The position numbers and the translations under genes were made by a program. A stretch of 64,000 bases of DNA, from the IMG/VR virus record IMGVR_UViG_3300043958_000214. The stretch is one strand, 5' to 3'. Each line of letters opens with the position of its first letter. Within the stretch, counting starts at the first letter, position 1. This DNA is from a virus. Shown here one piece after another: positions 8,826-61,687 of this stretch. The notes under the pieces are model-generated. The model worked only from the letters and a program-made list of their open reading frames with translations. It ran no database searches and was not told the DNA's origin.

Positions 8826-9986
8826 TCACTGCCCAGCAGGGAGATGCTCCATGTGGTCGAGCCGAGCGCGAGCTTCTTCGAGAGCGTGCCCGGTTGCGGC
8901 CCATTCACCACGGCGCAGTTCATCGGCCTTGCGGAAGTTCCGCATGGCCCGCATCGCCTTGTCGACCTTGTCGTGGGCGACGCGGGCGCGGATGACGTCG
9001 AGGCGCGCGTAGTCCTTCTCGCTCATTGAGTCGGGGATCCCGGTTGCGGCCTTCCACGTCGCCTTGGATACGGACAGCGAGATGTAGGTGGAGTCGCCTT
9101 CACGTTCACGCTGGACGAGCGCGTACTCGGTGCGCCCGCCGTCGCTCACGCGAACCTTCTTGTCGGAGATCCCCTCCTCGGCGATGATCTGGGCAAGGGT
9201 GCGCACCCGACCGTCCTCGCGCCGCCACTGCTGGGCAAGGTCCTTCTCGACCGTCTTCCGGACGGCGGGCGTGAGTGCCTCGAGGTCGATGCCGGCGTCG
9301 TGATAGCGGGGCGCCGGCGGGGCGGGTGGTGGCGTGACGTCGGCGTAGGCGCCATCTGGGAAAGCGAACGCGTGCGCGCCGGTGCCGGGCTTGTAATCTT
9401 CCGACGGCATGGTGAACTCGCGTGTCTCGCCCTGACCGCCTTTCCTCGCCCAGACGGTTGTCATCCCATCGTCGCCCCGAGACGCGGCGTTGACGATCCA
9501 GTCGTCGGCGTGTGCCGCGTTGAACTCGCGCGCAGCGACCACGTTGGACTCCTCGGGCGTCACCCTCTCGCCGGTCACCTGCTCCCAGGCGTCGGGCTGG
9601 TACTCGCGAAGAAGACGTTCCGCGAGGTCGATGTTCCCGATCTCGTCCGGGAATGCGTAGGCGGCACCCGCCCAGCCGTCGTCCTCCTCGTACCAGCCGC
9701 CTTTCTCGCGGAACGGGGCGGGGACCCTCCGGTTGCGTTGGGCGGACAGTTTGTATCCGCCGTGACTGTCGGTGTAGACGCGGACAATGCCGGGGGCAAT
9801 GTCCTCGACCTGGTCGGCTTCACCCCACGGGGTTCGGGACCCGACCTGAAGGCCCACGTTCCCCCAGTCGGTATGGGGGGTGCCCAACTCGACGCCTGCG
9901 GGCTCGGCGTGGTCCTTCGGGCTGTACTGGCCGACGTTGGCGGGGTTCTTCCCCCGCGGGTGCTTGGTTTCGTCGTAGGTGCTCAT
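8826..9986 (-). CDS. Hypothetical protein with HPRGKNP N-terminal tag and DUF7007-like domain
   Basis: MSTYDETKHPRGKNPANVGQYSPK; TPWG...SHGG...GWYEED motif. Confidence 0.75.
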   Translation of the reverse strand: MSTYDETKHPRGKNPANVGQYSPKDHAEPAGVELGTPHTDWGNVGLQVGSRTPWGEADQVEDIAPGIVRVYTDSHGGYKLSAQRNRRVPAPFREKGGWYEEDDGWAGAAYAFPDEIGNIDLAERLLREYQPDAWEQVTGERVTPEESNVVAAREFNAAHADDWIVNAASRGDDGMTTVWARKGGQGETREFTMPSEDYKPGTGAHAFAFPDGAYADVTPPPAPPAPRYHDAGIDLEALTPAVRKTVEKDLAQQWRREDGRVRTLAQIIAEEGISDKKVRVSDGGRTEYALVQREREGDSTYISLSVSKATWKAATGIPDSMSEKDYARLDVIRARVAHDKVDKAMRAMRNFRKADELRRGEWAATGHALEEARARLDHMEHLPAGQ

Positions 9987-9993
9987 ACCCATT

Positions 9994-10004
9994 CTTGTGC
10001 GGCG
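9994..10004 (-). promoter_or_regulatory. Class-A motif, variant
   Basis: CGCCGCACAAG-N7-ATG; weak upstream box. Confidence 0.6.
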
Positions 10005-10021
10005 GGTGTCGCAGTCCGGCG

Positions 10022-10510
10022 TCAATCGCGTCCGTGCTCTTCTTCCGCCAGCATCCGCCGGATGTCCTCCGCCCTCTCGCGCTCACGCTCGGTCTGCGGG
10101 TGATTGACGCAGTAATACTGACCGTCGTGTGTGAAGCATGGGTAGTGCTTGGCGCCGCAGACCGCACATTCGACGCCGACCTGCTCGGCGGTGAACACGC
10201 GGCTGGCGAAGCGGCCGCAGTGTCGGCAGATCCCAGCGCCGTTGTGGTATCCGCGAGGCTCGTACTCATGCCCTAGGCAGGTACGGATCCGCTCCCACTG
10301 GGACCACGCTGCGTCCTCAGCGGCGTCGAGTGACTTTCCTTCGCCGCGGATGAAGGTGTTGTCGGGGAACGCCTCGAAGAACGAGGTGCGGTACGGCTCG
10401 CCATCGCGCACGAGGACAATCCCCCGTCTCCCGCCCTGGATGAGGCAGTCGTGCGGCCACGCTTGATGCGGCTCGTAGTCGGGGGCGGTGATGGAGCGGA
10501 ACGGGCTCAC
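10022..10510 (-). CDS. Cys-rich hypothetical protein
   Basis: GTG start after GAGGAG; CRHC and CAVC pairs. Confidence 0.7.
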   Translation of the reverse strand: MSPFRSITAPDYEPHQAWPHDCLIQGGRRGIVLVRDGEPYRTSFFEAFPDNTFIRGEGKSLDAAEDAAWSQWERIRTCLGHEYEPRGYHNGAGICRHCGRFASRVFTAEQVGVECAVCGAKHYPCFTHDGQYYCVNHPQTERERERAEDIRRMLAEEEHGRD

Positions 10511-11373: not shown

Positions 11374-11410
11374 AGGGTCTCCTCGGTTCACGCCTGAGCT
11401 TTCATACTCA

Positions 11411-11421
11411 GTTGTGAGGCA
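11411..11421 (-). promoter_or_regulatory. Class-A motif core
   Basis: GCACG-N11-TGCCTCACAAC-N5-ATG (MKAQA* leader). Confidence 0.8.
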
Positions 11422-11508
11422 ACGAGGCAGCTCGTGCATGGGTCCCGATCAACACCCCCATCAAGGGGTTCCATCGAACATGGCAAAGCCCCTCATCGGG
11501 CGCGGCGA

Positions 11509-13302
11509 TTAGGCCGTGAGGTCGTCGTGGACACCGACCTTGGCGAACTCGTTGGTGCCATCGGGCAGGACCCAGAAGTGGAGGCGCCTGGCGGATGGGG
11601 TCTTGACCTGCAGGCTGGCCCTCCAGGCCACGGCGCCGTCGTCGCGGATGCGTGCGGGATCGTCTCCGCCGTTGCCGGTGCGCAGCCGGTGGAGCTCCCG
11701 GCTGGGCATCTGGGCTGCCAGGCCGGTGAGAACTTCGAAGACGACGTCAGCGACCTTGGCCTCGCTGATGCCCTCCAGGTGATCGAGGGAGTCGAGGAAG
11801 TCGTCGCCCAGAAGGTAGTCGGGAAGGGGATGCTCGGCTTGTTCTCCGGGTTCGGTGCGGGTCGCCCACGCGGTGAGGACGAGATAGCGGAAGCCCTGCT
11901 CACGGTCGGCGAACCGCGGGGCCGGGGCCTGGCCTGTCGTCTTGGCTGACTTCTTGCGGAGCTTCGTGCGTGCCGCCTTGAGGCTGTTCTCCGCGTTCCT
12001 CGCCCGACGCTCCGCCTGGTCGAGGAGGAAGCGGAGTTGGTCCGTTTCGTCGGTCAGGTCATCGACTCGCTGCTCGAGCATGCGTCTCGCCCGATCGCAT
12101 GCCGACAGCCGCGCCTTCATGACCTCGCTGGCCGGGACCTGCGCGTTGAGCGGCTCCGTGTCCTGGTCGGACGCAGGAATGTCCTGCTGTTCGGCGTCGG
12201 GGCCGTTGGGGGTGTCGGGCGCTTCGTTTCCCGGGGCGGCTTCGCCGCGCTTCGCAGTGAGCAGGGCGGGAGTCGGGAGAGGTCTGTCTTCTGGCGTCGC
12301 AAGCAGTTGCCCAGAGGGTTCCAGGTCCTGCTGGTCTTGTTCGGTGTCGTCGACGTCCTCGGTTGTCATCCACGGCGGACCTCCAGGAAGAAGACTGGGG
12401 GCGGGGACCGGCTGCTCGTCATCGTTGATGTCGCTGAGAGTCAGGGACCAGCGGGGCGCTGTGCTGACAACCCGGGCTTCGACCACCTCGCCCGGTGTCA
12501 TGAGTGATCGCAGGTCGTCGGCAGGGTTCGTTGTGACGTCCTCGCGTGCGACGCCGACGACAACCGCCTTGGTGCGCGTCGTCGGATACAGCATGAGGCC
12601 GGCGGTGTCGCCACTCACCGCCCCGACCTTGGCGAGGACCACGTCACCCACCGCGTAGTGGGCAAGTGCCTCGTGGCAGGGACGCAAGCCCCGAGTGACG
12701 TCCAGGCGGCCCGTCTCAGGGTCGAAGAGTCCTTCGACCTGTTGTCCGACGCTGACGATACGGTCGATCGAGACGTCGGCGACGGTGAGCTCCTCAGCGA
12801 TCGATGCGGGCATCGCGGCCCCGACGTCGACGAACGCGCGCCCCGACACGATGCCGGTCACTCTGCCTGCGGCGTGCCTGAGCGTGGTGGCCGGTGTGGA
12901 TTGCGTCAGCCCCGCTGAGAAGGCCATGCGCAGGAGGTCGGAGATCAGACTGTCGGTCGCGCGCTTGCCTTCGTGGGCGGCGTAAGCGAACCGCAGCGGG
13001 GAGCGCGTCAGGTCGGTCTTCCATTCGTGACCGACGGGGTAGACGCGTCCAGCGCCGCCGTAGACCTGGGTGCCTTCGACCATGCGCCGGGCGAATTCTC
13101 GGCTCGCTGCCCCCGTCGCCATGAGATAGACCTCGGCCAGGTCCCCGGCTTCGCGCGCGACCCGGTCAACGTCGATCCACGGCTGCGTTCGGGCCGGCGG
13201 CGTGGTGACGACGACGATCGGGCGGCGGCGCGCGCTGCCGTTGAGTCGGCTCGCCAGTTCGGCGGCGGACCTCGGGTCGGAGACGTCGTGGATGTCGGAC
13301 AT
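11509..13302 (-). CDS. 597-aa multidomain protein (S1-like beta repeats, coiled coil, possible RelE-like C-terminus)
   Basis: Long ORF; VGDVVLAKV and PGEVVEARV repeats; coiled coil about aa 385-435; ends RRLHFWVLPDG...VGVHDD. Confidence 0.7.
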   Translation of the reverse strand: MSDIHDVSDPRSAAELASRLNGSARRRPIVVVTTPPARTQPWIDVDRVAREAGDLAEVYLMATGAASREFARRMVEGTQVYGGAGRVYPVGHEWKTDLTRSPLRFAYAAHEGKRATDSLISDLLRMAFSAGLTQSTPATTLRHAAGRVTGIVSGRAFVDVGAAMPASIAEELTVADVSIDRIVSVGQQVEGLFDPETGRLDVTRGLRPCHEALAHYAVGDVVLAKVGAVSGDTAGLMLYPTTRTKAVVVGVAREDVTTNPADDLRSLMTPGEVVEARVVSTAPRWSLTLSDINDDEQPVPAPSLLPGGPPWMTTEDVDDTEQDQQDLEPSGQLLATPEDRPLPTPALLTAKRGEAAPGNEAPDTPNGPDAEQQDIPASDQDTEPLNAQVPASEVMKARLSACDRARRMLEQRVDDLTDETDQLRFLLDQAERRARNAENSLKAARTKLRKKSAKTTGQAPAPRFADREQGFRYLVLTAWATRTEPGEQAEHPLPDYLLGDDFLDSLDHLEGISEAKVADVVFEVLTGLAAQMPSRELHRLRTGNGGDDPARIRDDGAVAWRASLQVKTPSARRLHFWVLPDGTNEFAKVGVHDDLTA

Positions 13303-13313
13303 TGATATGGACC

Positions 13314-16207: not shown

Positions 16208-16984
16208 TCACGCGCTGTGGTAGGGGCAGTGCCCGCGACGCCGGCAGGGCGCACCGTTTCGTGTCGGTGCGCCGCAGAGTCCCGCAGCCCTGGCCTTGGC
16301 CGACCTCGCGAGAGCATCGAAGATGGCGGCGGAGGCTCCCCCGGTGGGGGCGACGTCGTACGCGTGGGTTTCGAGGAGGGAGAGTCCGTCGATCGGCGGC
16401 TTGAGAGCTTCGCGGATGAGCGGCTCGAATGGTGCACCCGAGGCGGATCTGAATGCTTGGATGGAGGCCCTGTCGTTGTCGATCCGGCTGACGTTGCGCC
16501 AAGAGAGCGTCCGTCCTGTTCGTGCGGCGATCTGGTCGAGGAACGCGCGCTGAGTCCTCCCATTGCCCTCGCGGAAGGGGTGGATGAAATTCGTCAGCGA
16601 CAGCAATTCTGCGGCCTTCGGCACGAACTGGGCATCCCCCATCTCGGCGTCAGACAGGAGCCCGGAGTCGTTGATGTACTCCGTCACTTGTCCAAACGCC
16701 GTGGGGATCAGCGAGTGCGTGTGAAACTCGGAGCTTCCCTTGGTGATCTCGACGGTCCGGAGCTGGCCGGCCCACGCCCACACGTCTTGGTAGAGGCGGC
16801 GGTGGATCTCCTGGAAGTGGGCGAGGTTGAAGCTGCCGTGGACGGGATCGTCTTCGAGTTCGCGCCGCCGGAAGAGTGACATCCGCCGTTCGTACTGGTC
16901 CGCCTCGGTCGGATCCCTCAGTCCGGCCAGGTTGATCAGCACCTCGGTGCCTGGGTAAACGTACGGGTCGTCAAGTTGGTTCAC
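16208..16984 (-). CDS. fic: Fic-domain toxin/AMPylase
   Basis: HPFREGNGRTQR catalytic motif; DPYVYPGTEVL start. Confidence 0.92.
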   Translation of the reverse strand: MNQLDDPYVYPGTEVLINLAGLRDPTEADQYERRMSLFRRRELEDDPVHGSFNLAHFQEIHRRLYQDVWAWAGQLRTVEITKGSSEFHTHSLIPTAFGQVTEYINDSGLLSDAEMGDAQFVPKAAELLSLTNFIHPFREGNGRTQRAFLDQIAARTGRTLSWRNVSRIDNDRASIQAFRSASGAPFEPLIREALKPPIDGLSLLETHAYDVAPTGGASAAIFDALARSAKARAAGLCGAPTRNGAPCRRRGHCPYHSA

Positions 16985-35382: not shown

Positions 35383-35429
35383 GACCGCGGTTTCCAGTAG
35401 ACGTCGACGTGTTTACGCAAGTGGAAGAG

Positions 35430-45101: not shown

Positions 45102-45105
45102 GCCT

Positions 45106-45115
45106 TGTGTGTGCC
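45106..45115 (-). promoter_or_regulatory. Class-B motif (dinG)
   Basis: GGCACACACA-AGGC-ATG. Confidence 0.65.
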
Positions 45116-45281
45116 TGGGCGGGGGCGGGAAGCGAACCGGATGGTTCGCGGCGGGTGGTGCCGGGAGCCCGATCGCGTTCAACCGCCTTTTCGCGCATTC
45201 GGGCTCCCGGCGGCGGGACCGTGGTTCCGCCGGAGGCCGCGCACCACCCCTGAGCGGTCTCCACCCGCATCTATGCGTAGG

Positions 45282-46490: not shown

Positions 46491-47166
46491 GGCGCCCCCC
46501 GCGTCGTCCTTTAACTGCGTTGCGCAGTTCTGGGGACAGCGCCAGCTCGTGGGATCGGCCCATGGGCTGTGAGGCGACGATGTAAGCGTCGGCGAGCGGG
46601 TCGGGCGCCCTCCCCAACCGGGTTCCGGGTGCACAGAGCTCCTGGCAAATGTCTGGGGCTGGCTCTGCGGAGGCAACGTGTCCGGTGGCGGGGATGGAGA
46701 GCCACGGGTCCCCCACCGCATGGGGCCCGTCAACGTCGAGGACGCAGTTCATCGCGACCGCCTCAAGGCCACCGGCGTCGGCGATCAGGGTGTGGAGGGG
46801 CTGGTAGTTCAACGTCTGGGGGAGCATGTCGCCGGCGAGGAGGATCCGGTCGGCGGGCCCGTAGGGCGGGCACCTCAAGGGGATCCGGTGGCGTCCGGCG
46901 ACTGAGCAGGCGATCTTCGCCATCGAAGATGCCTTGAGATAGTAGGCCCCCTTCACTTCGACCCACAGTCCCAGTCCGGGGAGGAAGAAGTCGGGCAGGT
47001 AGCTCATCTTGCGTGTGACCCGGTAGAGGCAGGGCTCGTAGTCCCAATCCCATCCGACGCAGTCGAAGAAGAGAGCCCACCTGGCCTCCAGCCTGCTCCT
47101 GAATGTGACGCCGGAGTAGGCGGTGGATGCCGCCCCCGTCTTCGCGGTGACCGTTCTGGATCCCAT
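46480..47166 (-). CDS. PD-(D/E)XK nuclease-like protein
   Basis: FRSRLEARWA, YLPDF, WVEVKG. Confidence 0.8.
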   Translation of the reverse strand: MGSRTVTAKTGAASTAYSGVTFRSRLEARWALFFDCVGWDWDYEPCLYRVTRKMSYLPDFFLPGLGLWVEVKGAYYLKASSMAKIACSVAGRHRIPLRCPPYGPADRILLAGDMLPQTLNYQPLHTLIADAGGLEAVAMNCVLDVDGPHAVGDPWLSIPATGHVASAEPAPDICQELCAPGTRLGRAPDPLADAYIVASQPMGRSHELALSPELRNAVKGRRGGRRVR

Positions 47167-49025: not shown

Positions 49026-52000
49026 TTAGCGCCCGGCCTCGGCGTTCTTGAGCCTCCCCGCCTTCTCCTGCTCGCGGGCGATGACGTCGGTGGAGGTGGT
49101 GGAGATCTGGGAGAGGAAGTCCTTCGGAATCAGGATCTGGGTGGGCACGACCCGGTCTGACAGGTCGACGTACAGCCCGATGGCCCCCCTGATGACCTCC
49201 CCGGTTTCCGCGTCGCGCAGGGCTCGCATCGAATTCCAATTGGGTTCCTGTGACCCCTCGATCGTGGCAGGGGCCGACAACCGGGCCAGGCGCTGCTCTG
49301 TTGCTTGGAGCTTGAAAAGCTGGAGGGCGAGACCCGCTTCGCCATTGTCCGTGTTCCCGAACCGGTCCTTCTGCCCCGTGCCACGTCCAAGGGGAAGAAT
49401 CACCCCGCGGCTGATCCCGCCGAGAAGATCAGCCTCGACAAAGTCCGAGACCTTCTGGGAGGCGAGGACCACGAGAACCTGCTGGGAGCGAGCCAGCCGG
49501 GAAAGACGGTCAAGTTCGGCCTTGCCTTCCGGGCCGATCATGAACTGCCACGCCTCGTCAAGGACGACGACGCCCTCCCGGTAGGCGACAGCAGCCGCAG
49601 ACCCGTACACCATCATGCGCAGAACCCACGACCCGATGCGTTGGATCATGGAGGACCGCTGCCACCCGCCCTCCCCCGTATCCGGAAGAGCGATCCGAGC
49701 ATTGCCGACCATGATCAGCGACAGCCCCTCCGCCTGCCGGAGAGCCTGCCCATTCGGCGAAAACCCGAGGATCGCGCGGGCCAACGGAGTGGCCTCCAAC
49801 ATCCGCAAGATGGGCGTGAGCAACCCGTCAGGCAGAGGCGTCGCAGCGTCCGAGATACGCAAAGCCTCACCCACACAGGTCCCACCGTGCTCAACCCCGT
49901 ACCGCAGCGCCGAAAGCAGGTCGACCTCGAAACGCCCCCGCAGGTCCCCACCCCACGGATCGATGGAAGAGATCATCTGAGAAGCCAGCTCCACCGCCTC
50001 TCCGATCGTGTTCGCGAAAGACTCCGGACTCGTACGGTCAATGAGGGTGCGAATCGGGTCGAACACGCCATCAGCGGACGCGAGATCATCCAAACTCATC
50101 ACTTGCCCGCCAAGCTTGCGCACCGGCTCAGAGAAATCAGACCCCGGTTTCGCATCAATCATCACGATCGGCGTCCGCCACCCACGCGAGGTTGGAATAT
50201 GGGCCCACTGCCTGACAAGGGAAAGGAGAGTCATCGTGTTGTGAGAAGGAACGAAGCCCTCGACCAAATACGTATGGTCCGGGGAATCCACGGACAAGCA
50301 CCGACAGGCCCGCGGCGCAACCGCCTCAATCCCCGTGATGCCGAGACGCAGCTGATCCTCCCCCACCGACCTGGGAACAAGCCGCGCCTTCTCAGCCACA
50401 CGGAAGACAGTTTCAACAGTCGTGAAACCCACCCGGTAGCACATGCCCACACGGTGCCCGGCATCCGCTTCGGCAATACTCATCGACGCCTTGATCCCGA
50501 GACCGCGAACCAGCTCAAGGACATCCCCCGCCAAACCCTCACCCTCCACAGCGAGCTCGCATTCCCCGCCATGCCCAACCCTCCCCCTCTCATCCATGAG
50601 ACCCTGGAGAAGAGCGAGCCGCTGCGCCCGCGAGGCGCGCTGATAGATCGCAGGGATGCGATCACCGACTGGAACGCCGACCGAACCCCCCGCAGCACAC
50701 TCCCCGCCCAGCCACACGCCCAGAGAATACGGATCCACCGGAAGAACCGCGTCAGGGAGATCGAGCGCTCGCGGGAGCCTGATCGAGAAGTTCGCGCAGA
50801 CGTTGTCGCCTTCGCGCACGCTCACTCCCTGGTCGAGCATCTCCCCCGTTGACATGACGACTTCTCCTGGGTCCAGGCTTGGCTCGTCCGCGTGCTGCTG
50901 CTGGACGCGGATGGCGAGGCCTCGGATAGCCGCCTTGGTGGAGTAGACGAGGGGGCGATACCGCATCGCCGCGACAGGATGTTCGGCGGATGGGCGCGGA
51001 TGCCGACCGTCTCGGACATTCCGCTCGGCCCCGGTAGGGACGGACCGGGGCGCCACGTCCACCATGCGCAAAGACGCGTGGATCCCATTTGGGCCTCTCC
51101 AGGGGGTTGCGTCGATGTCGTTGACGATCTCCCACAGGTCTTCCAGGGCGGAAAGGTGCTCGTCGTCATAGTCGTCAGCCAGGTCGCAGAGCCGCCACGC
51201 GAGGTCACGCGCCTCCCGGCTCGTCTCGACGCAGTGGCGGGAAGGGGATGGATGGGGCTGGGCGCGCCGACGGACCACCCACTGGTGATTCGAGTCGGCG
51301 TCGATGTGTTGTCCGTCTGAGAGCGTGAGGCGGTACAGGTGGGGCTTGCGTTCGATGGCGGACAGGTCGGTGACCCGGCATGGGCGCCCATCGCGCCCGA
51401 GCACTTCGTCGCCGACATTGAGCTGTCCGACGGTCGTCCAACCGGTGGGTGTGGGGATGCGCGTCGTCAGCGCAAGCAGCTTCCCCGACCCCGTTCCTCC
51501 GGCGACGACAAGGAGCGGACCTCCGTCGCCTTTCGTTGCAGCGAAGGGGGAGATGTAGGCGGGCTGCTGGTCAGCCTCCGTCAGGCCGAGAAGGGCTCCG
51601 CTCGTGTCCCCCACGGTCGACAGGTTCGCCAGTCCGGCGCACGCGATGGTCTGGGCCGGGAGTTCGTGAACCCTGGGGGCGGCCTTGACGTTGGAGCAGA
51701 GTTTCATCTCCTCGAAAGCCGCCTGCTGGCGTGCGGGAAGCGCTCCGAGGTGGATCGAAGAGTCTCCCATGAGCCTGCCGACGTCCTTTTGGACCCGGTC
51801 GAGGGCGACGACGATGGAGGTATCGATGAGGGTGGGTGTCCCCCCTTGGGTTCCGTAGGCGGCCTCGACTTGGGAGAGGATCTCGATCTGCTGGTCTTGC
51901 TCAGCCTTAGACATGAGCCCCTGGGCAACGCGGTCCTCACGATCTTTGCGGAAATTGTCTCGCCCCCGAGCGAGTTCGGCGCGGGTGATTTGGGCTGGTT

Positions 52001-52865
52001 CGATCTTGCCGCGAATGCTGATCGCCCGGGCTCCCTTGAGGACGAGGTCGATTCCCCACTGGGCTCTGGCAGAGGTGGCGTCGATCCAGGGGAGGTCGAA
52101 CTCGGCCGCCGAGGCGAGAGTGAGCGCATAGGCCTGGGAAGGTAGTCTCCAGTTTTCGCATTCTGCGGGGTCCATGTCTGCGGCCATCTGGGCGGCTGAG
52201 ATGGTCCGGCAGACGTGGATGTGGTCGTCGTGGAGGAGGATCGGGACGTCTGGCGTGTCGCCGAAGTTCCACCACCCGCGGGCTAGGGCGAGCTCGTCTC
52301 GGCCGAACGTGTCGACGCCGAGTTCCCGCATGCCCGCCTGGCGGAAGATGGCGTCAACGACCTGGTAGTCGTCCTCGAAGTCCTCGACCGGAATGCCGCC
52401 GGTGAGGAACGTCTCCGACACGGACTCGACCGCGGACGCCACTCTTCCCTTGCCTGCCCTGGTCATCTTGGGGAGGAGTCGTGTCCCCACGAGGAGAAGC
52501 CTCCGGAACGTGTACTCATCGCCGTAGTCGCGTGTGAGCATGTCGGCGTTCGGGAGGCCGTGGTTGGGCTTGAGGGGGGTCGGAATATTGAGGAGGAGCA
52601 GGTGCAGGTCGCGGTAGGAGTCGCGATTGAACTGGCGGCGTTTCCCGGTTGTGTGCGCGAGGGCGGCCAGCTGCTCCATGACGCGGAGGATCGGGACGGA
52701 CGCTTCGAGGACCTTCTGGGAGTCGCGGGCGTCCTGGATGGGGGACAACGGGGCTGCGCGGTAGCACCACATGCTGGAGTTTTTCGGCCCGACCAGTCTT
52801 CCCCCGTCGAGGACGCGGCTGATCAGGGTGGTGCCCTGGGGGGCGGCAGTCAGAATCTCACTCAT
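49026..52865 (-). CDS. VirB4/TraC-like conjugation ATPase containing an intein
   Basis: GGTGSGK|TMTL, VVVLDEAW, LARSQQVLVVLASQ. Confidence 0.8.
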   Translation of the reverse strand: MSEILTAAPQGTTLISRVLDGGRLVGPKNSSMWCYRAAPLSPIQDARDSQKVLEASVPILRVMEQLAALAHTTGKRRQFNRDSYRDLHLLLLNIPTPLKPNHGLPNADMLTRDYGDEYTFRRLLLVGTRLLPKMTRAGKGRVASAVESVSETFLTGGIPVEDFEDDYQVVDAIFRQAGMRELGVDTFGRDELALARGWWNFGDTPDVPILLHDDHIHVCRTISAAQMAADMDPAECENWRLPSQAYALTLASAAEFDLPWIDATSARAQWGIDLVLKGARAISIRGKIEPAQITRAELARGRDNFRKDREDRVAQGLMSKAEQDQQIEILSQVEAAYGTQGGTPTLIDTSIVVALDRVQKDVGRLMGDSSIHLGALPARQQAAFEEMKLCSNVKAAPRVHELPAQTIACAGLANLSTVGDTSGALLGLTEADQQPAYISPFAATKGDGGPLLVVAGGTGSGKLLALTTRIPTPTGWTTVGQLNVGDEVLGRDGRPCRVTDLSAIERKPHLYRLTLSDGQHIDADSNHQWVVRRRAQPHPSPSRHCVETSREARDLAWRLCDLADDYDDEHLSALEDLWEIVNDIDATPWRGPNGIHASLRMVDVAPRSVPTGAERNVRDGRHPRPSAEHPVAAMRYRPLVYSTKAAIRGLAIRVQQQHADEPSLDPGEVVMSTGEMLDQGVSVREGDNVCANFSIRLPRALDLPDAVLPVDPYSLGVWLGGECAAGGSVGVPVGDRIPAIYQRASRAQRLALLQGLMDERGRVGHGGECELAVEGEGLAGDVLELVRGLGIKASMSIAEADAGHRVGMCYRVGFTTVETVFRVAEKARLVPRSVGEDQLRLGITGIEAVAPRACRCLSVDSPDHTYLVEGFVPSHNTMTLLSLVRQWAHIPTSRGWRTPIVMIDAKPGSDFSEPVRKLGGQVMSLDDLASADGVFDPIRTLIDRTSPESFANTIGEAVELASQMISSIDPWGGDLRGRFEVDLLSALRYGVEHGGTCVGEALRISDAATPLPDGLLTPILRMLEATPLARAILGFSPNGQALRQAEGLSLIMVGNARIALPDTGEGGWQRSSMIQRIGSWVLRMMVYGSAAAVAYREGVVVLDEAWQFMIGPEGKAELDRLSRLARSQQVLVVLASQKVSDFVEADLLGGISRGVILPLGRGTGQKDRFGNTDNGEAGLALQLFKLQATEQRLARLSAPATIEGSQEPNWNSMRALRDAETGEVIRGAIGLYVDLSDRVVPTQILIPKDFLSQISTTSTDVIAREQEKAGRLKNAEAGR
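50238..51479 (-). other. Class 3-type intein (414 aa) in the ATPase P-loop
   Basis: Starts Leu; HQW (B), CRCLSV (F), PSHN/T (G); LAGLIDADG remnant LQGLMDERG. Confidence 0.85.
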
Positions 52866-54045
52866 CGGCGTGCCCCTCGACGCGCAGCAGGACAGGCCGG
52901 TTAACGACCGTGGGGGATGCGTTCTGCGGGGTTTCGTCCAAGATGATCGGCGCTGAGGCGATGAGGCTCGCCCGGTATTCGCCCCTCTGGGGGGCGGCGC
53001 GCACCGGTGAGCAGGGCATTGTCTCCGCGATCGCCGCGTGCTGAGCGAATGCCAAGGATGAGAGGTGGCAGGAGCCGGTGTCGATGAGAGACGAGACGTG
53101 GTCTTCCCGATGCCCGATAGCGACGATGATCGATGTGTCGACGAGGTTCGCGGGGCCGTCGTGCGCGTCCGGGGAGGATGAGCCGGGAGAGATCCTGCCG
53201 CCCAGGTTGTCGCGGCGAGCCTGTGCGCGTTTCACTTTTCCGCGGGTCTTTTCGATCCGTGTGAGCGACGAGGGCTCAACTCGCCCGCTGATTGAGATGA
53301 CCTTGGGGCCGAGCTCGCAGATGTCGTTCACCCAGTATGCGGTTTCGAGTGTCGACCAGAGCCATGACTGGTCGAGTTCGGGGACGAGTGCCATGGTGAT
53401 GACCTGGGAGCCTGGGATGTCCCAGTTCGCGCATTCCGACGGATCTCGGGCGGCGGCGATGTTCGCGCTCGTTGCCGTGCGGAAGATGTGAACATGGTCG
53501 GCGTGGATGAGGAGGCGGGTGTCGGCCTCACCGGTCCCCGCCATCCAGTTCAGGACGCGGGACCGCTGCTCCGCCTTGAGCTCACCAGTCCCCGCGTCGC
53601 GCATGGTGGCGTCGACGAGGGTGTAGTCCTGCACGTAGTCGAAGATGGATCCTCGCCCGGAGACCAGCTCCTCGCTCAGTGACGTCATGGCGGAAGACCA
53701 TGCGCCTCTGCCCTGTCGGGTTGGCAGTCCTCGCAGTTCGACGCCGACGGCCGCGAAGCCGTCATCGGGGAAAACGAGGAGCTTGAAGTTCCGGTAGCGG
53801 CGGAGGTTTCGGCGCCCCGATGTGGCTTCTCCCTGGTCCGAGAGGGCGGTGAGGAGGCGGAAGACCGGATTCCCCATTCCGACAGACCTGCGAACGGTCT
53901 CCGCGCCTGGAACGCGGAGAATGGGGACGCCCCGGTACACCCAGAGGGTGTTGTGGACGCCGACGAACCGCCCGCCCGTCAGGACCGCGCGCACGTAGGT
54001 ATTCCACGCGCGCGGTTGGGCATTCTGGGTCGCGGGAATGCTCAC
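52858..54045 (-). CDS. Paralog of the N-terminal domain of the VirB4-like protein, lacking the ATPase
   Basis: Shared LxHxDHxH, DPxECxNW, SIxGxxEP, DTSIxVA, APxxxE motifs. Confidence 0.7.
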   Translation of the reverse strand: MSIPATQNAQPRAWNTYVRAVLTGGRFVGVHNTLWVYRGVPILRVPGAETVRRSVGMGNPVFRLLTALSDQGEATSGRRNLRRYRNFKLLVFPDDGFAAVGVELRGLPTRQGRGAWSSAMTSLSEELVSGRGSIFDYVQDYTLVDATMRDAGTGELKAEQRSRVLNWMAGTGEADTRLLIHADHVHIFRTATSANIAAARDPSECANWDIPGSQVITMALVPELDQSWLWSTLETAYWVNDICELGPKVISISGRVEPSSLTRIEKTRGKVKRAQARRDNLGGRISPGSSSPDAHDGPANLVDTSIIVAIGHREDHVSSLIDTGSCHLSSLAFAQHAAIAETMPCSPVRAAPQRGEYRASLIASAPIILDETPQNASPTVVNRPVLLRVEGHADE

Positions 54046-55091
54046 TGGGCGTCCGCCCTCCCGGCGGTCGTGGCGTTCTGGAAGGGGGTGAGGAGATGAC
54101 CGGTTCCCGGCGCTCCCCAGGCGACGACCTTCGGGGATCCGCTCTGCGCCCCGGTGAGGAGAAGATCGAGGTGCATTTCGGGAAGTGTGACGTTGTCCTG
54201 TTCGGTGACTCCCTGGCGGTCGATCTGCAGTGATACCTGAACGACCTCAGTGTCGGAGGTGGAGGCGTTGTCTTTGACCTCCTTGCCGCTGAGGAGGTAG
54301 GCGGCTCCGATGGATGTCCACTTGGCTTGGACGACGCCGGTGAGCGGAATGTAGGCGTGAGACGTGTCGGGGTCGCTGACCGCGGTACTCAATGTGGCTG
54401 GATCACCTGACGTGTAGGCGGAGACCCAGGCGGTGATCGCGTTTTGCACCGGTTGTGTCGGGCTGGTTGACACGCCGTTGGGCCAGGCCGCCTCGTCGAC
54501 TTGCATTGTGGCGTCGGTGGGCGCGTTCGGGGTGAGTGCCGGGTTCCCGACGGCTGATGCGCCCTGGCTGGGAAGGTAACCGACAAGCTGTTCAATCGTG
54601 TACGTGCGTGTCGGTGTCAGTTTGTTCCCGTTATCATCGAACGTCGCATCGACCTGGGCGGTGAAGGAGTGCACCCATCGCTGGGCGGATTCATTCTCTG
54701 AGGCGAGGAGTCCGTTGCCGGCGGCAGAGGACGCGGTCTCGATCTGTCGCGCTCCGTTCCAGGAGACGACGTGGGCTCCGGGCAGTGGGGCAGGATCCGT
54801 GCCGAGCCACCGCGAGACCGCGTCCACCGCTTCGGCTTTCCCCGGAGGATTGAGGATCTGTTGGGAGGACTGCGCTTGGTCGCCGCTGGTTGCGTCCCGT
54901 CCGAGAACGGACAGGCTCCCGACCGCCGTGATTGCGGAAAGAGAGAGGAGCACCCAGATGAGGCCCTTGTAGAACCGCGCTTTGCGGCGCTCCTTCCTGA
55001 TCGGATCGAGGCTCCTGCGCGGGCGTTCCTGGACGACGGAGGTCCCCCAGACGTCATCGTCATCCTGGGCGTTTCTCTTCCGGTGACTCAC
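54042..55091 (-). CDS. Bitopic membrane protein, TcpC/VirB8-like candidate
   Basis: Single N-terminal TM then two domains; sits upstream of the VirB4-like genes. Confidence 0.55.
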   Translation of the reverse strand: MSHRKRNAQDDDDVWGTSVVQERPRRSLDPIRKERRKARFYKGLIWVLLSLSAITAVGSLSVLGRDATSGDQAQSSQQILNPPGKAEAVDAVSRWLGTDPAPLPGAHVVSWNGARQIETASSAAGNGLLASENESAQRWVHSFTAQVDATFDDNGNKLTPTRTYTIEQLVGYLPSQGASAVGNPALTPNAPTDATMQVDEAAWPNGVSTSPTQPVQNAITAWVSAYTSGDPATLSTAVSDPDTSHAYIPLTGVVQAKWTSIGAAYLLSGKEVKDNASTSDTEVVQVSLQIDRQGVTEQDNVTLPEMHLDLLLTGAQSGSPKVVAWGAPGTGHLLTPFQNATTAGRADAQ

Positions 55092-55391: not shown

Positions 55392-55937
55392 TCAGGCTTT
55401 CGCTGCCAGCTCGGCGATCGAATAAAGGCGTGCGTCAACGGTCTCGTCAAGGCCTCGAACGGCCTTGACGAGGGCGATCGCGGCGTGGGCGGGCTGCGAG
55501 GGCACGCCGTCCAGGTCCGCGCCCAGCGTGCGGGCCAGCTTCCAGACCGCCTTGATGTCTGCCGCGTCCATCCCAGCGATGGTGACACCCGCGGTGAGGT
55601 CGTCCGAGGTGCGCACGACGGTCAGAGCCTCCAGTGACGTGGATGCCTCCTTCGACCCCTCCTGGATGGCGACCGCAAGCTCGGCGAGATCTGCCTTGCC
55701 AAACAGGCCGGCAAGTACCTCCAGGTCGTTCTCCGGGGCTTGGGTGAGCGCGATCGCTTTCGCGGCGACCGCGACAAGTTTGGCGTCGGCGCCCCGGCGA
55801 GACGAACTTGAGCGTTTCTTCCCAGACCTCGAGCGCTTCGGTTTCGCGTCACCGTCGTCAGACGCCTCGGGGGCGTCGCTTGGCCACGTCGGTTCGGTGT
55901 CGCTGCCTGATGTCTGGAACCGGTCCCATTCGGGCAT
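55392..55937 (-). CDS. Hypothetical protein
   Basis: RBS GAGGAGAG; 181 aa. Confidence 0.7.
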   Translation of the reverse strand: MPEWDRFQTSGSDTEPTWPSDAPEASDDGDAKPKRSRSGKKRSSSSRRGADAKLVAVAAKAIALTQAPENDLEVLAGLFGKADLAELAVAIQEGSKEASTSLEALTVVRTSDDLTAGVTIAGMDAADIKAVWKLARTLGADLDGVPSQPAHAAIALVKAVRGLDETVDARLYSIAELAAKA

Positions 55938-55979: not shown

Positions 55980-56820
55980 CTATGCGGAGGCGGCGAGCTG
56001 CGACTCTCGGATGCGCATGAGTCGGAGCGCGTAGGCGGCTTGTTGGGGGACGACCCCGTTGCCGAGGGCTCGGAGCTGCTGGGGGCGCGGGATGTCGACG
56101 CCGGTCACCCAGCCGTCGGGGAGGCCCATCATCCACTCGACGAACCGCGGCGAGAGGCGCGGTGAGCCGTGCGCGCCCGGCTCTGTCGGCGCGGGAGCAG
56201 GGCGCCCGCAGACACGCTCCCAGCGCCGGATCGCGGGCGCGTACTCGCCGAACCTGTCCTCCGACGCGATGCCGTTCAGGAGGAGTTCGTCAGAGCGCGA
56301 GCCCGACCGGCGCTTGTGCCCTCCCTCGACGTCAGCGACCTGCGGCGTGGGCAGGAGCTTGTCGATGCTGTCCAGCCCGTAGCGCACCGCGGCCCCCTCG
56401 GACGGGGATTGATTGGACCCGTAGCGTCCTGCCGTGGGGGTCGGCAGGAGCGTCAGAGGCTCTCCGCCACGTCCGCGATCGACGGCTGATGACCCCCCCC
56501 CCCGCCCTGCGCTTCGCCGGCGGCTGCCCCCCACGGTCCTCCCCATCCCTGGCCGCTGGGGTAGGTAGTAGGCGCACATTCTCTGTGCTGGAGCCACCAC
56601 GAGTCGCCCTCGGGGTGTGCAACAACGAAAACTCGATACCTCTGGTGGGGTGCGCCGACATCGGAAGCGCGTACGCCCACCCACTGCGCGTCATACCCGA
56701 TTGAGGCCAGGTCTCCGAGAACGCGCCCGAGAGCGCGGAGAAGAGGTCCATCTGCGCGGACTCCCAGATGTCCCTCTCGGGACTCCATGAGGCTATAGGC
56801 GGGTGCTGAAAGGGCTCCAC
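55980..56820 (-). pseudogene. C5 DNA methyltransferase beta part (LLPTP repeats, motifs IX-X), out of frame at a G11 tract
   Basis: Frame from 56820 (SETWPQSGMTRSG..LLPTP) joins the frame ending ALGNGVVPQQA if one G is removed at 56493-56503 (841 to 840 nt). Confidence 0.7.
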
Positions 56821-57217
56821 GGACGTTCTCCCATACGACTAGATGCGGGCGGAGTGTGCCGATCGCTTTGATCATGGATTCCCACAGGCCCGAGCGCGTG
56901 CCAGGCCTCATGCCGGCGCGCTGCCCGGCCAGGCTCAGGTCCTGACACGGACTTCCGCCGGCGATCACGTCGACCGGCTCCACGTCGGCCCAGTCCACGG
57001 CGGTGACGTCCCCGAGATTCGGAGCGTCCGGGTAGCGCTGGGCGAGGATCGCCGGAGCGTTCCCGACCACGATCCCCTTCTCGTCGAGCTCGACGATGTC
57101 CGATACCCACGCCGTGCGAGCCGGGCCGAGGGCCATCTGCACGCCCATACCGAGACCTTCATAGCCGCTGAAAAGGGACCCGAGCTTGGGCGGTGGGATG
57201 GAAGCGGATGGGCTCAT
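56453..57217 (-). CDS. C5 DNA cytosine methyltransferase alpha part (motifs I-VIII)
   Basis: SLFSGYEG, GGSPCQD, ENV, QRYRVF. Confidence 0.85.
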   Translation of the reverse strand: MSPSASIPPPKLGSLFSGYEGLGMGVQMALGPARTAWVSDIVELDEKGIVVGNAPAILAQRYPDAPNLGDVTAVDWADVEPVDVIAGGSPCQDLSLAGQRAGMRPGTRSGLWESMIKAIGTLRPHLVVWENVRGALSAPAYSLMESREGHLGVRADGPLLRALGRVLGDLASIGYDAQWVGVRASDVGAPHQRYRVFVVAHPEGDSWWLQHRECAPTTYPSGQGWGGPWGAAAGEAQGGGGGHQPSIADVAESL

Positions 57218-57221
57218 GCCT

Positions 57222-57231
57222 TGTGTGTGCC
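57222..57231 (-). promoter_or_regulatory. Class-B motif (C5 methyltransferase)
   Basis: GGCACACACA-AGGC-ATG. Confidence 0.65.
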
Positions 57232-57259
57232 GCGACGGTCCGGGGCGGCGTGCAACACC

Positions 57260-58453: not shown

Positions 58454-59092
58454 TCACACGGCCGGCGGTGTCCCTACGACGGCGGTGAGCGTGTTCGGAG
58501 CGATCTCGGTGAGGCCCGAGTCGTGGACCTCGATGCGTTCCGGCGCGACCGAGTGAACGTCGCCGACGGTGAGGCTGAGTCCCGGGCCCGCCTGCCACTC
58601 GTCCCGGACATGTTTCGGCGCGTGGAGGAGCCACAGGCACGCCGCGTGGGCGGCCTGGGCTGCGGCCTTTCCTGTGGTCATGTCTACGTCGCGGTTGATG
58701 ACGACGTGAGGGTGCGCCGCCGCTGTGGGGACGATGTACTCGTCCGCATCATCATTGTTGCGAAGGTCGAGTCCTGAGACCTGGAGTCGGGACAGATCCT
58801 TCGGCCATTCCGCGTAGGGGGTGGGGGCGAACGCCCACGCGGTCGCCCCGCCGACGGAGAACCGCACCTTGGGGATGTCGAGAGCGTCGATCCTGCGGGC
58901 TTGGGACTCCTTGGAAACCCGCCGAACCGACTTTGTGAACAGGCCGTGGACCCACGTGTCCCAGTACGGGGACTCGAGGTCCGGGGCGAGCGTGGCAAGG
59001 CCGGAGGCAATGGCGGCGGCCGCGATGGTCTCCAGGTGCGTGGTCGGCGCCACGACGATCGCCTGCACCGGGACGGTCGACTCAGCGCGCAT
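58454..59092 (-). CDS. Peptidyl-tRNA hydrolase type 2-like protein
   Basis: MTTGKAAAQAAHA and DSGLTEIAPNTLT. Confidence 0.85.
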   Translation of the reverse strand: MRAESTVPVQAIVVAPTTHLETIAAAAIASGLATLAPDLESPYWDTWVHGLFTKSVRRVSKESQARRIDALDIPKVRFSVGGATAWAFAPTPYAEWPKDLSRLQVSGLDLRNNDDADEYIVPTAAAHPHVVINRDVDMTTGKAAAQAAHAACLWLLHAPKHVRDEWQAGPGLSLTVGDVHSVAPERIEVHDSGLTEIAPNTLTAVVGTPPAV

Positions 59093-59273
59093 CGGGATCG
59101 TCTGCGAGTTCGTAGTCGCGCTGGAAGCGGTCTACGTTGGTGTTGCCCTCGCGTCTGGGACTATCGACGTGACGCCACCTGACACGGTCGCTCCAGAGGT
59201 TGAAGATCCTGACCAAGCGGCCTGTCCTCTTGCTGCGCCAGACCTGCAGGACGCCGATCTGCTGCGCCAGCAT
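59082..59273 (-). CDS. Small hypothetical protein
   Basis: 63-aa ORF coupled to both neighbours. Confidence 0.55.
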   Translation of the reverse strand: MLAQQIGVLQVWRSKRTGRLVRIFNLWSDRVRWRHVDSPRREGNTNVDRFQRDYELADDPDAR

Positions 59274-59857
59274 CAGAAAGTCCTCTCAGAGAGCACGCGA
59301 CGCAGGTGGCGCAGCCGGTCCAGTGACGCCTGGATGTCGGCGAAGGCTGTGTGGTCGGAGTCCGCGGCGTGCGGGTTGGCGACGTCCTCCCCCACCCATT
59401 CGTCGGCGAGGAACTGGACGGCCGACACGTCAACGCTGCGGTAGTGCAGGTGAGCCATCGTCTGAGGGAGGTAGACGTCCCCGAAGTTCATGTCAAGGCG
59501 GAGGCTGGATCCGGCCATGCGGGCCTGGCGGGGTTCCGGGGCGAACCGCCGGACGAAGGCGAGGAGAGCCTCGTCGACTTCAGCGAGCGGAAGGGCCTCC
59601 GAGCCCTGGACGGCCTGCCAGATGCCGTTGTCGGTGTGCATCTTCCGGACGAGCGGCGTCGCGCGGGCGTAGAGGCTATGAGCTTCCTCGGGCGTGTGGG
59701 CCACCAGTGCGTGGAAGTGCTCGTCGGTCAACTCCACCAGGTTGGTGTCGGTGACGATGGCCGCGACCTCCAGGAGTTCACAGTCCTTGGGGTCGAGTCC
59801 CGAGGTCTCGGTATCCACCCACAGGAGGATGTTCTGGTGGTCGGTGTCGGTGGTCAT
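59273..59857 (-). CDS. orn: Oligoribonuclease
   Basis: WVDTETSGLD, MHTDNG, HYRSVDVS, HTAFADI; an alternative start exists near 59947. Confidence 0.9.
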   Translation of the reverse strand: MTTDTDHQNILLWVDTETSGLDPKDCELLEVAAIVTDTNLVELTDEHFHALVAHTPEEAHSLYARATPLVRKMHTDNGIWQAVQGSEALPLAEVDEALLAFVRRFAPEPRQARMAGSSLRLDMNFGDVYLPQTMAHLHYRSVDVSAVQFLADEWVGEDVANPHAADSDHTAFADIQASLDRLRHLRRVLSERTF

Positions 59858-59952
59858 GCGGAGGTCCTCTGCAGCGTCGGTTGATGTCTCATGACAGTGT
59901 CCGCCCGTCCACCGGCACTTCCGCCGGCGGACGAACCAAGCTGACATCACCA

Positions 59953-59963
59953 GTTGTGAGGCA
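59953..59963 (-). promoter_or_regulatory. Class-A motif core (orn)
   Basis: GCGCC-N11-TGCCTCACAAC-N5-ATG. Confidence 0.8.
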
Positions 59964-60053
59964 AACCGGGACCTGGCGCTCCCTGGTGACGCGAGAGTGA
60001 GAGGCAGTCGTCAGTGCTGGGCTTCGAGGTTGTCCATGAGCGGGCCGATCAGC

Positions 60054-60935
60054 TCAGCCACGGGAGTTCTCCTTCTGCTCGGCTGCGATGCGTTCCATGG
60101 ACACCTGCGCGCCCTGGAATGCCCGCCCTTCCAGGCCATCCATGACACCCATGCCGCGTCCGTAGGCGGTCTCTGCGAACGTCTCGAGTTTCGCGCGTTG
60201 GTCGTCGCTCAACTGCGTGGGCCCGCCGGGCCAGTAGTTGTAGCCGGTCCCGTACAGGACCTCAAGCTCACCATCCCCGCCCTTGGTCACCACCAGACAG
60301 TCTTCTTCGTCGTCTCCGTATTCCAGCACCATGTCGGGCGAATCCCCGTCGTCCCAGACGAACTCGATCTCAGGGGCTGGCAGCCCCTCCGGATAGGCAG
60401 CGGGCGCGGGGTAGAATCTCGCGAAGGCATCGGAGCGAGCGTAGGTCTCTGCGTCGTCGGCGATGAGCCGCTTGACGAGGTCGGCGCGGTCCTCGGCTGA
60501 AAGGGACTTCGCTTGGGCGGTGAGTGTCGCCACGGTCGGTGCCTGCAGCGACCCGGGTTCGCTGATTGTCGCCGCAGCGTCACGCAGCCACTCGGCCTTG
60601 ACCAGGCGCAACGTGAAGCCGGTCATTTCCTCGTCGTCCCGCTTCGGGGCATCGTCAACCATGGCAAGGATCCGCTGGGCTGCCTGGGCGCGCACTCGCG
60701 CGTCGTGGGCGCCGACCATCGCGTCCCACCGTGCGGACGCGGTCTCGGGGTCTGTGGCGTCGTAGTACCCGTCGGAATGCTGAGCGTCCTCGATGTAGGT
60801 GGCGCGGAGCTCATCGAAGGGATCCTGAGAGTCGATCAGTTCCACGCCCGAATCCTCCCTATACTCACGGTTGCTGTACTGGCCGGTGTTGTCGGGGTTC
60901 TTCCCGCGGGGATGCTTGATCGGATCCTCAGCCAT
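60054..60935 (-). CDS. Hypothetical protein with HPRGKNP N-terminal tag
   Basis: MAEDPIKHPRGKNPDNTGQYSNRE; RBS GAGGAG. Confidence 0.75.
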   Translation of the reverse strand: MAEDPIKHPRGKNPDNTGQYSNREYREDSGVELIDSQDPFDELRATYIEDAQHSDGYYDATDPETASARWDAMVGAHDARVRAQAAQRILAMVDDAPKRDDEEMTGFTLRLVKAEWLRDAAATISEPGSLQAPTVATLTAQAKSLSAEDRADLVKRLIADDAETYARSDAFARFYPAPAAYPEGLPAPEIEFVWDDGDSPDMVLEYGDDEEDCLVVTKGGDGELEVLYGTGYNYWPGGPTQLSDDQRAKLETFAETAYGRGMGVMDGLEGRAFQGAQVSMERIAAEQKENSRG

Positions 60936-60946
60936 GATTGTTCTCC

Positions 60947-61687
60947 TCAGATGTCGGTGTCGGCCCAGCGGCCGATGGTCTGGATGACATTGTCGTAGTC
61001 GCCGGACGTGGCTTCGTCCATGAAGGCCGCGATGTCGTCCGCGGTTGCGCCGCCGCGACGAAGAGCCTTCATGGTCCGTCCGATCATGCCGGCCGCATTG
61101 GCGTCTTGGCCGAGCAGGTCGACGTGAATGTCCGGGAACCGGGGTCCCTCCTGCTCGGCGGTCGTCTCCTTCTTGCGGAGGACGACCCAGCCCTCGGCGT
61201 CGTAGGGTTTCTCTCCGTCTTCCTCGTCGAGTTCGGCTCGCTCGTCGTCGTGCATGTAGTGGGCTTCCGCGAGGACGTAGGTGCCGGGTTCGTCAATCAT
61301 CTTCTGCGCGAGCGCCCCGCTGAGGATCTCCGAGTTGTGCATGACGGGGCCGTTGTACCCGTACTGTCCGGTGTAACCGTCGGAGACGGCCTCCCAACCC
61401 GAGATCGAGGAAGCATCCACGCGCCAATTGTCATGGCCGACTTGGTACAGGTCGTAAGAGCCATCGAAGTAGACGGGTGAGTCTGAGATCGTGCCGTCGC
61501 CGTTGGAGACGATCGGGCAATTGAACTCGACGAGATCGTCGAGGGAATCCACCGTTACGGGCATTCGCGTCGGTTCGTTCCTTGCCAAAGTCACGCCCTC
61601 CGCCTCTGCGTGGTCCTTGGGGCTGTACTGGCCGGTGTTGTCGGGGTTCTTCCCGCGCAGGTGTTTCGACTCGTCATATGCGCTCAT
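60947..61687 (-). CDS. Hypothetical protein with HLRGKNP N-terminal tag
   Basis: MSAYDESKHLRGKNPDNTGQYSPK; C-terminal GQDANA...EATSGDYD domain common in phage ORFs. Confidence 0.75.
   Translation of the reverse strand: MSAYDESKHLRGKNPDNTGQYSPKDHAEAEGVTLARNEPTRMPVTVDSLDDLVEFNCPIVSNGDGTISDSPVYFDGSYDLYQVGHDNWRVDASSISGWEAVSDGYTGQYGYNGPVMHNSEILSGALAQKMIDEPGTYVLAEAHYMHDDERAELDEEDGEKPYDAEGWVVLRKKETTAEQEGPRFPDIHVDLLGQDANAAGMIGRTMKALRRGGATADDIAAFMDEATSGDYDNVIQTIGRWADTDI

Follow-up and report, generated by a model that had tools for sequence, protein, structure and literature searches.

A portable, element-specific N-terminal leader marks unrelated accessory proteins of an actinobacterial megaplasmid family

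Among the described systems that come closest to the one reported here, the internal proteins of phage T4 carry a capsid-targeting sequence of about 10 residues, which is found in T4-like phages only and is removed by the prohead protease, and polymorphic toxins carry short junction motifs, VENN in CdiA and DPxGL in Rhs. Known signals for type IV secretion lie at the C-terminus or internally, and it is a pattern of charge or hydrophobicity that defines them. In addition, phages and conjugative elements encode polyvalent proteins, which have solo-domain versions as well (Iyer, Burroughs, Anand, de Souza, Aravind 2017, PMC5512222). Here, we analyze a window of 64,000 nucleotides, the whole of a stretch filed as IMG/VR virus record IMGVR_UViG_3300043958_000214, in which three proteins with unrelated bodies start with a common leader peptide of about 35 residues. 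The leader is the local dialect of a peptide family that marks many soluble, mostly acidic accessory proteins on one actinobacterial conjugative-type megaplasmid family. Literature searches for the motif returned no paper describing such a leader, and the paper on MuF-fused phage toxins (Jamet et al. 2017, PMC5576092) mentions no such motif.

The three genes (P0001, P0002 and P0003; Table 1) lie on the minus strand, which carries nearly all genes of the window (G+C 64-68%), and their products begin exactly as an initial annotation of the sequence had quoted them. They share the core K-H-[PL]-R-G-K-N-P-x-N-x-G-Q-Y-S within a hydrophilic leader, and 18 of the 38 columns in the alignment of the three leaders are invariant. 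The initial annotation had put the length of this tag at about 25 residues, which proved too short, as the shared stretch reaches residue ~34-36 and ends in G-V-x-L. Since more than 13 fixed residues occur three times within 64 kb, chance is excluded; paralogy of the whole proteins was also rejected, because the bodies are unrelated and, as had been claimed, show no similarity to one another by BLASTP. P0003 starts 11 nt past the stop codon of P0002 and is thus directly downstream of it, as first reported. No fourth copy was found in the window by six-frame regular-expression scans or by hmmsearch with a profile of 46 leaders, the next best match (E 0.009) not being a leader. The proteins of the window are recorded on a JGI contig of 192,334 bp. 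A contig of this length also encodes P0007, a small tagged protein that weakly resembles, below threshold, a zinc-binding CxxC family; it is probably the same contig, outside the window, which would make the P0007 gene at least the fourth tagged gene of the element.

The window was compared with plasmid pPA-B-2242 (417,721 bp) of Pseudarthrobacter sp. BIM B-2242 and with a scaffold (262,563 bp) of Tersicoccus mangrovi MR15.9. About 20 open reading frames (ORFs) of the window have homologues on one or both of these replicons (tblastn), including a syntenic block around a protein with an AAA_10 (VirB4/TraG-type) ATPase domain. The backbone proteins that all three elements have in common are encoded at window positions 11509-13302, 37160-39340, 41646-45182, 46480-47166, 49026-52865, 52858-54045, 54042-55091 and 55392-55937. 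Each relative carries one AAA_10 gene in the shared backbone region, that of the Tersicoccus scaffold being the only one in its genome, and both carry FtsK/SpoIIIE-like genes. No HK97-type capsid gene was found in pPA-B-2242 or in the Tersicoccus genome, and no head-gene Pfam match was found among the main ORFs of the window. Because of the shared backbone, the AAA_10 genes and the lack of an HK97-type capsid gene in the relatives, the window belongs to a conjugative-type megaplasmid family of Micrococcales-like actinobacteria and not to a phage.

On both relatives the leader is abundant: profile hidden Markov models (HMMs) gave 48 matches on pPA-B-2242 and 23 on the Tersicoccus scaffold, compared with only three copies in the window. 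A sister form, R-Q-P-E-G-I-P-x-G-G-Q-F-A-A-x-x-H-S-E-P-x-V-x-L, starts 42 (regular expression) to 48 (HMM) proteins of pPA-B-2242; it can be aligned with the window form with two one-residue gaps, M1, G12, P15 and G19 being invariant and H26 and L34 conserved in more than 90%. One window-like copy on this plasmid starts with F-D-D-A-K-H-P-R-G-D-S-P-E-N-R-G-Q-F-S and is fused to an AbiEii-like nucleotidyltransferase (P0009). The tagged genes of pPA-B-2242 form long tandem arrays, and their recognizable products are two DUF7007 proteins, an NAD-ligase, a PolyA_pol/HD enzyme and a DUF2958 protein, the rest being without a Pfam family. In T. mangrovi, all 23 of the 23 HMM matches fall on the one 262-kb scaffold, which makes up 7% of the 3.7-Mb genome, indicating that the leader is a feature of mobile elements and not of the host proteome.

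In a broader search, a profile of the three window leaders was run against 1.84 billion cluster representatives and gave 50 matches at E <= 1e-3, 11 of them at E <= 1e-10. Approximately 30 of the 50 are small soluble proteins (123-457 residues) with the leader at residue 1 or after a mis-called extension, and their consensus is M-S-T-Y-D-E-T-K-H-x-R-G-x-N-P-x-N-x-G-Q-Y-S-x-K-D-H-A-E-x-E-G-V-x-L. The bodies of 40 N-tagged proteins fell into 34 unrelated clusters. Strict patterns of the window-type leader had no hit in the viral and genome contigs scanned, nor did a looser DNA pattern in the metagenome contigs scanned, all of these being collections without the window's own contig; a further loosened pattern hit six loci in genome contigs, none with the GQYS dialect.

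Orthologous bodies carry different leaders or none, so that the leader must be a module that can move between proteins and does not belong to a fold. Residues 49-160 of P0001 match DUF7007 (PF22653; E 2.5e-36, 125.1 bits against a gathering cut-off of 27), and the leader lies outside this domain. Nearly all of 31 actinobacterial DUF7007 homologues carry some dialect of the leader (KHPRG..GQY, HPRG..GRF, G-x-P-x-GGQF, GGRF and others), with linkers so variable that 39 to 78 residues separate the N-terminus from a conserved anchor in the body, and the proteobacterial DUF7007 proteins of Agrobacterium and Polymorphum have a different N-terminal region and no leader. Likewise, the ligase of the window is without a leader, whereas the 42%-identical ligase of pPA-B-2242 has one. 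P0001 and P0060 are 79% identical in their bodies and 37% in their leaders, and P0002 and P0006 are 90% and 38% identical, respectively; the two replaced leaders of P0060 and P0006, whose bodies (of the P0001 and P0002 types) were not compared, are 45% identical, and the leaders of P0001 and P0002, on unrelated bodies within the window, are 68% identical. These comparisons agree with the earlier view of the tag as a shuffled module, and the position of the leader outside the DUF7007 domain of P0001, together with the leaderless proteobacterial homologues, contradicts the opposite view that it belongs to a folded domain shared across the full length. In a separate observation, the untagged DUF7007 genes of an Agrobacterium pTi plasmid (L075:1192-2079) and of a Polymorphum plasmid (L076:1177-2064) both stand just downstream of a ParB/RepB/Spo0J-family gene.

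The mean identity among leaders is 0.56 in the window and 0.43-0.44 inside pPA-B-2242 and inside the Tersicoccus scaffold, and it drops to 0.27-0.30 between the window and either of them. As leaders are more alike inside than between elements, it follows that those of one element change together. The DNA sequences of the P0002 and P0003 leaders share an identical run of 36 nt. One explanation for such similarity is that an upstream box and the first ~110 nt of each gene form the head of a DNA cassette, serving as a shared expression signal and as a homology arm for body exchange, the peptide being largely a passenger. The identical run, the resemblance of leaders within an element, the tandem arrays of pPA-B-2242 and the box common to P0001 and P0002 are what this explanation would predict. 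However, although codons have changed, both synonymously and from one codon family to another, the amino acids have been kept in different elements and phyla. The Pseudarthrobacter copy of the leader differs at synonymous sites and encodes the conserved serine by TCC instead of AGC, and in 43 copies on pPA-B-2242 every invariant residue is encoded by several codons, a count which is conditioned on the amino-acid pattern and therefore attests to synonymous variation and not to a rate. The motif is also retained internally in phage proteins that have another codon usage. Taken together, these patterns show that the leader is a portable, element-specific peptide under selection for its amino acids.

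The upstream box itself adds to the case against a cassette head. The initial annotation had described a variant promoter as belonging to the genes that start at 9986 and 61687 only. The word GCCGCACAAG does occur exactly twice in the window, 8-17 nt upstream of these two ATGs; with one mismatch it has 4 sites, compared with 6.2 expected, so that the word is not enriched, and CCGCAYA occurs 12 times against 16.9 expected. What is notable about the box is its fixed offset from the ATG and not the frequency of the word. The exclusiveness of the box did not hold for the wider family, since 48 genes of pPA-B-2242, of which only 24 are tagged, have the core CCGCACA 16-17 nt ahead of their start codons, at the offset seen in the window. 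In a second register, in which CCGCACA starts 8 nt before the start codon and abuts the ATG, it precedes a further 37 genes of pPA-B-2242 and is found 57 times on the Tersicoccus scaffold. Conversely, about half of the leader genes of pPA-B-2242 follow an ordinary ribosome-binding site with no box, as does P0003, whose Shine-Dalgarno sequence overlaps the stop codon of P0002. The box is thus a conserved fixed-position feature of the element family, which tagged genes do not require and do not have to themselves, and a function as a promoter may be considered as a candidate role. With half of the boxed genes untagged and many tagged genes unboxed, we regard the cassette explanation as decidedly improbable. 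A feature of leaderless mRNAs or of translation was rejected as the main cause as well, given that P0003 and many genes of pPA-B-2242 have the leader behind a normal Shine-Dalgarno sequence. A second box, CGGCACACAC, was seen 15 nt (from box start to ATG) before cas3 (ATG at 5275; site 5275-5290) and before a C5 methylase gene (ATG at 57217; site 57217-57232), with further sites at 35383, 31233 and 715, all on the minus strand; it is probably the commoner box of the element, with GCCGCACAAG as its variant.

A connection with phages emerged from the lower-scoring matches of the profile search. In these large proteins, the sequence [W/F/Y]-[D/E]-E-x-K-H-P-R-G-[Q/K]-P-x-N-x-G-[Q/E]-F is present internally in 2-5 copies, and a low-complexity linker (Gly/Ser-rich) comes after each copy; one of the proteins contains an ART-PolyVal domain (ART, ADP-ribosyltransferase) and one a NUDIX domain. 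A DNA pattern for K-H-P-R-G-x3-N-x-G-Q-[F/Y] identified 28 loci in IMG/VR viral contigs. In ten proteins tested, the motif lies past a Phage_portal_3 domain at the borders of ART or pyrophosphatase (InPase) modules, or otherwise in a NUDIX protein or near the N-terminus (residues 19-100) of proteins of the ART or Zeta-toxin kind. Stand-alone motif-headed genes occupy the head-gene region in all five of the five neighbourhoods checked, either just downstream of the portal gene (and of the terminase gene where seen) or just before a protease-capsid gene; this slot near portal and capsid genes is where head-internal proteins are usually encoded. Hence, the earlier remark that similar leaders recur in phage proteins was well founded, with KHPRG..GQF peptides both following portal domains and heading proteins encoded beside portals. 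The core aromatic-D/E-E-x-K-H-P-R-G-x2-P-x-N-x-G-Q-F/Y is the same peptide as that which heads the effector modules of portal-fused and portal-adjacent proteins on phage contigs.

The position of the motif at module boundaries, before Gly/Ser-rich linkers, raises the question of whether it is a processing site, at or near which a protease or self-cleavage would free modules from portal fusions and would trim or activate the plasmid proteins. One motif-headed gene directly precedes a prohead protease-capsid gene, and the removal of the T4 capsid-targeting sequences by the prohead protease offers a parallel. However, a cut at residue ~8 of a stand-alone protein would set nothing free, an additional conserved half of the plasmid leader (H-A/S-E-P-x-V-x-L) is missing in the phage form, and no dedicated protease was identified in the window. 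A role in processing is therefore very doubtful in our opinion.

With regard to its physical character, the leader has a grand average of hydropathy of -1.1 to -1.6 (about -1.3 to -1.6 for the window leaders). In P0001, P0002, P0003, P0007 and P0009, the Kyte-Doolittle maximum over 19 residues does not go beyond 1.19, and it stays at or below 1.6 in all of 73 further tagged proteins; since there is thus no tagged protein with a hydrophobic segment, a Sec or Tat signal was rejected. A clamp-binding or Pup-like peptide does not fit the residue pattern, and the P-R-G-x-P of the leader has a putative likeness to AT-hooks. Pfam, NCBIfam and PHROG contain no family over leader residues 1-40, the best match in a profile search of the PDB has an E-value of 1.2, with no solved structure, and the ESM Atlas returned nothing usable for the leader.

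A hydrophilic peptide of this kind could also act entirely inside the cell, as a linear motif that binds one partner for all its bearers, such as a chaperone, an AAA+ protease or a scaffold, for joint folding, assembly, localisation or degradation. A candidate partner is a membrane J-domain protein acting with host DnaK, because a tagged gene is immediately preceded by one for a J-domain protein both in the window (P0002) and on pPA-B-2242, where the gene at L002:11291-11989 directly precedes that of P0009, whose body differs from that of P0002. Read by eye from its translation, the J-domain protein of the window has a Pro-rich linker, hydrophobic stretches in the middle and a C-terminal domain. 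In favor of such a partner, the leader showed no secondary structure in two low-confidence models, element-specific dialects suggest that the partner is encoded by the element, and the presence of the motif before every module, even within single polypeptides, fits a per-module role such as refolding. Nonetheless, the order of J-domain and tagged genes is known in two cases and was not seen upstream of the Sinomonas orthologue, and an intracellular partner gives no account of the tie of the core to portal proteins and phage head-gene neighbourhoods. We consider this possibility rather unlikely.

The reading we prefer, tentatively and at somewhat less than an even chance, is that the leader serves as a recognition handle, its bearers being proteins that travel with mobile DNA or assist it as it enters a cell, as the associations of the leader suggest. 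The initial annotation had proposed a targeting signal on early effectors, for their delivery with the DNA; this proposal is supported in part, the tag being a real module of unrelated proteins, whereas early effectors and a causal role of the tag in transfer are hypothetical. In the reading preferred here, a partner encoded by the element and connected with the translocation or entry of DNA would recognize the leader as a short linear motif, and the tagged proteins would be handled together, most likely being co-transferred with the DNA or recruited to it when the element arrives in a new cell. Each body would then contribute a different activity, such as DUF7007, the AbiEii-like nucleotidyltransferase, the ligase or the CCA/poly(A)-polymerase-like enzyme, and the high DNA identity of leaders inside one element would probably also permit body swaps by recombination. 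In its most far-reaching form, which we regard as unlikely, one peptide code, [aromatic]-D/E-E-x-K-H-P-R-G..P.N.G-Q-F/Y, would be understood by the machineries that move DNA in tailed phages (portal and head) as well as in conjugative megaplasmids of actinobacteria, so that dozens of unrelated effectors would be sent with the DNA into a new host, the dialect of each element being tuned to its own receptor.

Several points weigh against the recognition handle. Conjugation has no known precedent for close to 50 substrates on a single plasmid, and known type IV secretion signals are C-terminal, not N-terminal. Portal-fused modules need no targeting signal and yet keep the motif, which a per-module role (processing, refolding) fits at least as well. 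The drift of dialects could be plain gene conversion, the concerted changes fitting an element-encoded receptor too. The motif was not found in cultured-phage records, in an insensitive search (tblastn with the 36-residue leaders). Finally, AlphaFold2 models of P0002 and P0003 from 3-row alignments draw the leader as coil, and with a predicted local distance difference test (pLDDT) score of 33 and 37 they are too poor to count for its disorder or independence.

Comparison with the known systems places the leader close to, and apart from, each of them. The T4 capsid-targeting sequence is likewise a short N-terminal peptide common to unrelated proteins that travel with DNA, but the leader is ~35 residues long, is conserved across phyla and is carried by proteins of plasmids, with no cleavage known. 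As with the VENN and DPxGL junctions, a short conserved motif borders swappable modules and DNA identity there could drive cassette exchange; however, the toxin junctions follow a large constant delivery domain, whereas the leader stands alone at the N-terminus. Type IV secretion signals permit the transfer of proteins by a conjugation apparatus, and a VirB4-like ATPase is present on the elements described here; in contrast to those signals, the leader is N-terminal and conserved in sequence. The likeness to polyvalent proteins lies in mixed effector domains (ART, NUDIX, nucleotidyltransferases, methylases) that are encoded by phages or plasmids and are predicted to enter the cell with the DNA (PMC5512222). 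Several of the large matches of the leader profile are of the polyvalent type (ART-PolyVal, NUDIX). The window proteins differ in being small, with at most one recognizable domain: polyvalent proteins have at least two disparate effector domains, whereas P0001 has one Pfam domain and P0002 and P0003 have none, and they would be at most solo-domain counterparts. Their setting, in contrast, is of the expected kind, on a phage or conjugative element and in the vicinity of genes for DNA transfer or heads, as indicated by the AAA_10 ATPase, the Rpf-like G5/DUF348 protein, orphan methylases and the backbone shared with a plasmid. The published account defines globular domains, and text searches of it gave no mention of the present short peptide (PMC5512222).

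All three tagged proteins are soluble and acidic, and their surroundings are summarized here with the coordinates (Table 1). The last 66 residues of P0002 (60947-61144) match phrog_1933, a family of unknown function; tblastn matches to this domain were seen in hypothetical proteins on Campylobacter jejuni and Calothrix plasmids, which makes it a widely travelled small domain. P0003 has no family match in Pfam, NCBIfam or PHROG, and its tagged homologues are P0020 and P0025. Directly downstream of P0001 is a gene pair (8262-8923, minus strand) that, judged by eye, seems to encode a RelE/ParE-type toxin and a ribbon-helix-helix antitoxin. P0002 and P0003 are flanked, all on the minus strand, by genes for a C5 methylase (56453-57217), a PTH2-like protein (58454-59092), an RNase T-type exonuclease (59273-59950) and an N6/N4 methylase (62895-63998), a mix of the kind seen in plasmid establishment or anti-defence regions. 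Overall, the window encodes type I-E Cas3 and Cse1, an ATP-grasp protein, an NAD-dependent ligase, SNF2 and DEAD helicases, an Rpf-like G5/DUF348 protein, a Fic/DOC protein, C5 and N6/N4 DNA methylases, RNase T and PTH2. The type I-E genes cse1 (cas8e) and cas3 (763-5566, minus strand) lie on the mobile element itself, and the Fic/DOC family protein (E 8e-16) is encoded at 16208-16984, also on the minus strand.

Table 1. Positions of the tagged genes, their leaders and upstream signals, and two genes of their context in the window
Feature	Positions	Strand	Remarks
P0001	8826-9986	-	386 residues; leader, short linker, DUF7007 body
P0001 leader, residues 1-36	9879..9986	-	local HMM E 3.6e-12
GCCGCACAAG box of P0001	9994..10003	-	ends 8 nt before ATG
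P0002	60947-61687	-	246 residues; acidic, isoelectric point 4.3
P0002 leader, residues 1-36	61580..61687	-	local HMM E 3.2e-9
GCCGCACAAG box of P0002	61695..61704	-	ends 8 nt before ATG
P0003	60054-60935	-	293 residues; acidic, isoelectric point 4.3
P0003 leader, residues 1-34	60834..60935	-	local HMM E 1.6e-8
GAGGAG Shine-Dalgarno of P0003	60943..60948	-	overlaps P0002 stop codon; no CCGCACA box here
J-domain protein	61714..62895	-	DnaJ PF00226 E 1.5e-15; directly upstream of P0002; context, possible partner
AAA_10 (VirB4/TraG-type) ATPase-domain protein	49026..52865	-	1279 residues; backbone block common to pPA-B-2242 and the Tersicoccus scaffold

If the leader is indeed a recognition handle, it would allow the accessory and effector set of these megaplasmids, about a tenth of their genes, to be listed from sequence, and it would connect this set with the modules that phage portal proteins carry as cargo. 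The leader could then be used as a portable tag for protein delivery during mating, and two hosts of such elements, Pseudarthrobacter sp. BIM B-2242 and Tersicoccus mangrovi MR15.9, are in culture. More broadly, the finding would bear on whether the co-transfer of proteins on such a scale occurs in Gram-positive conjugation.

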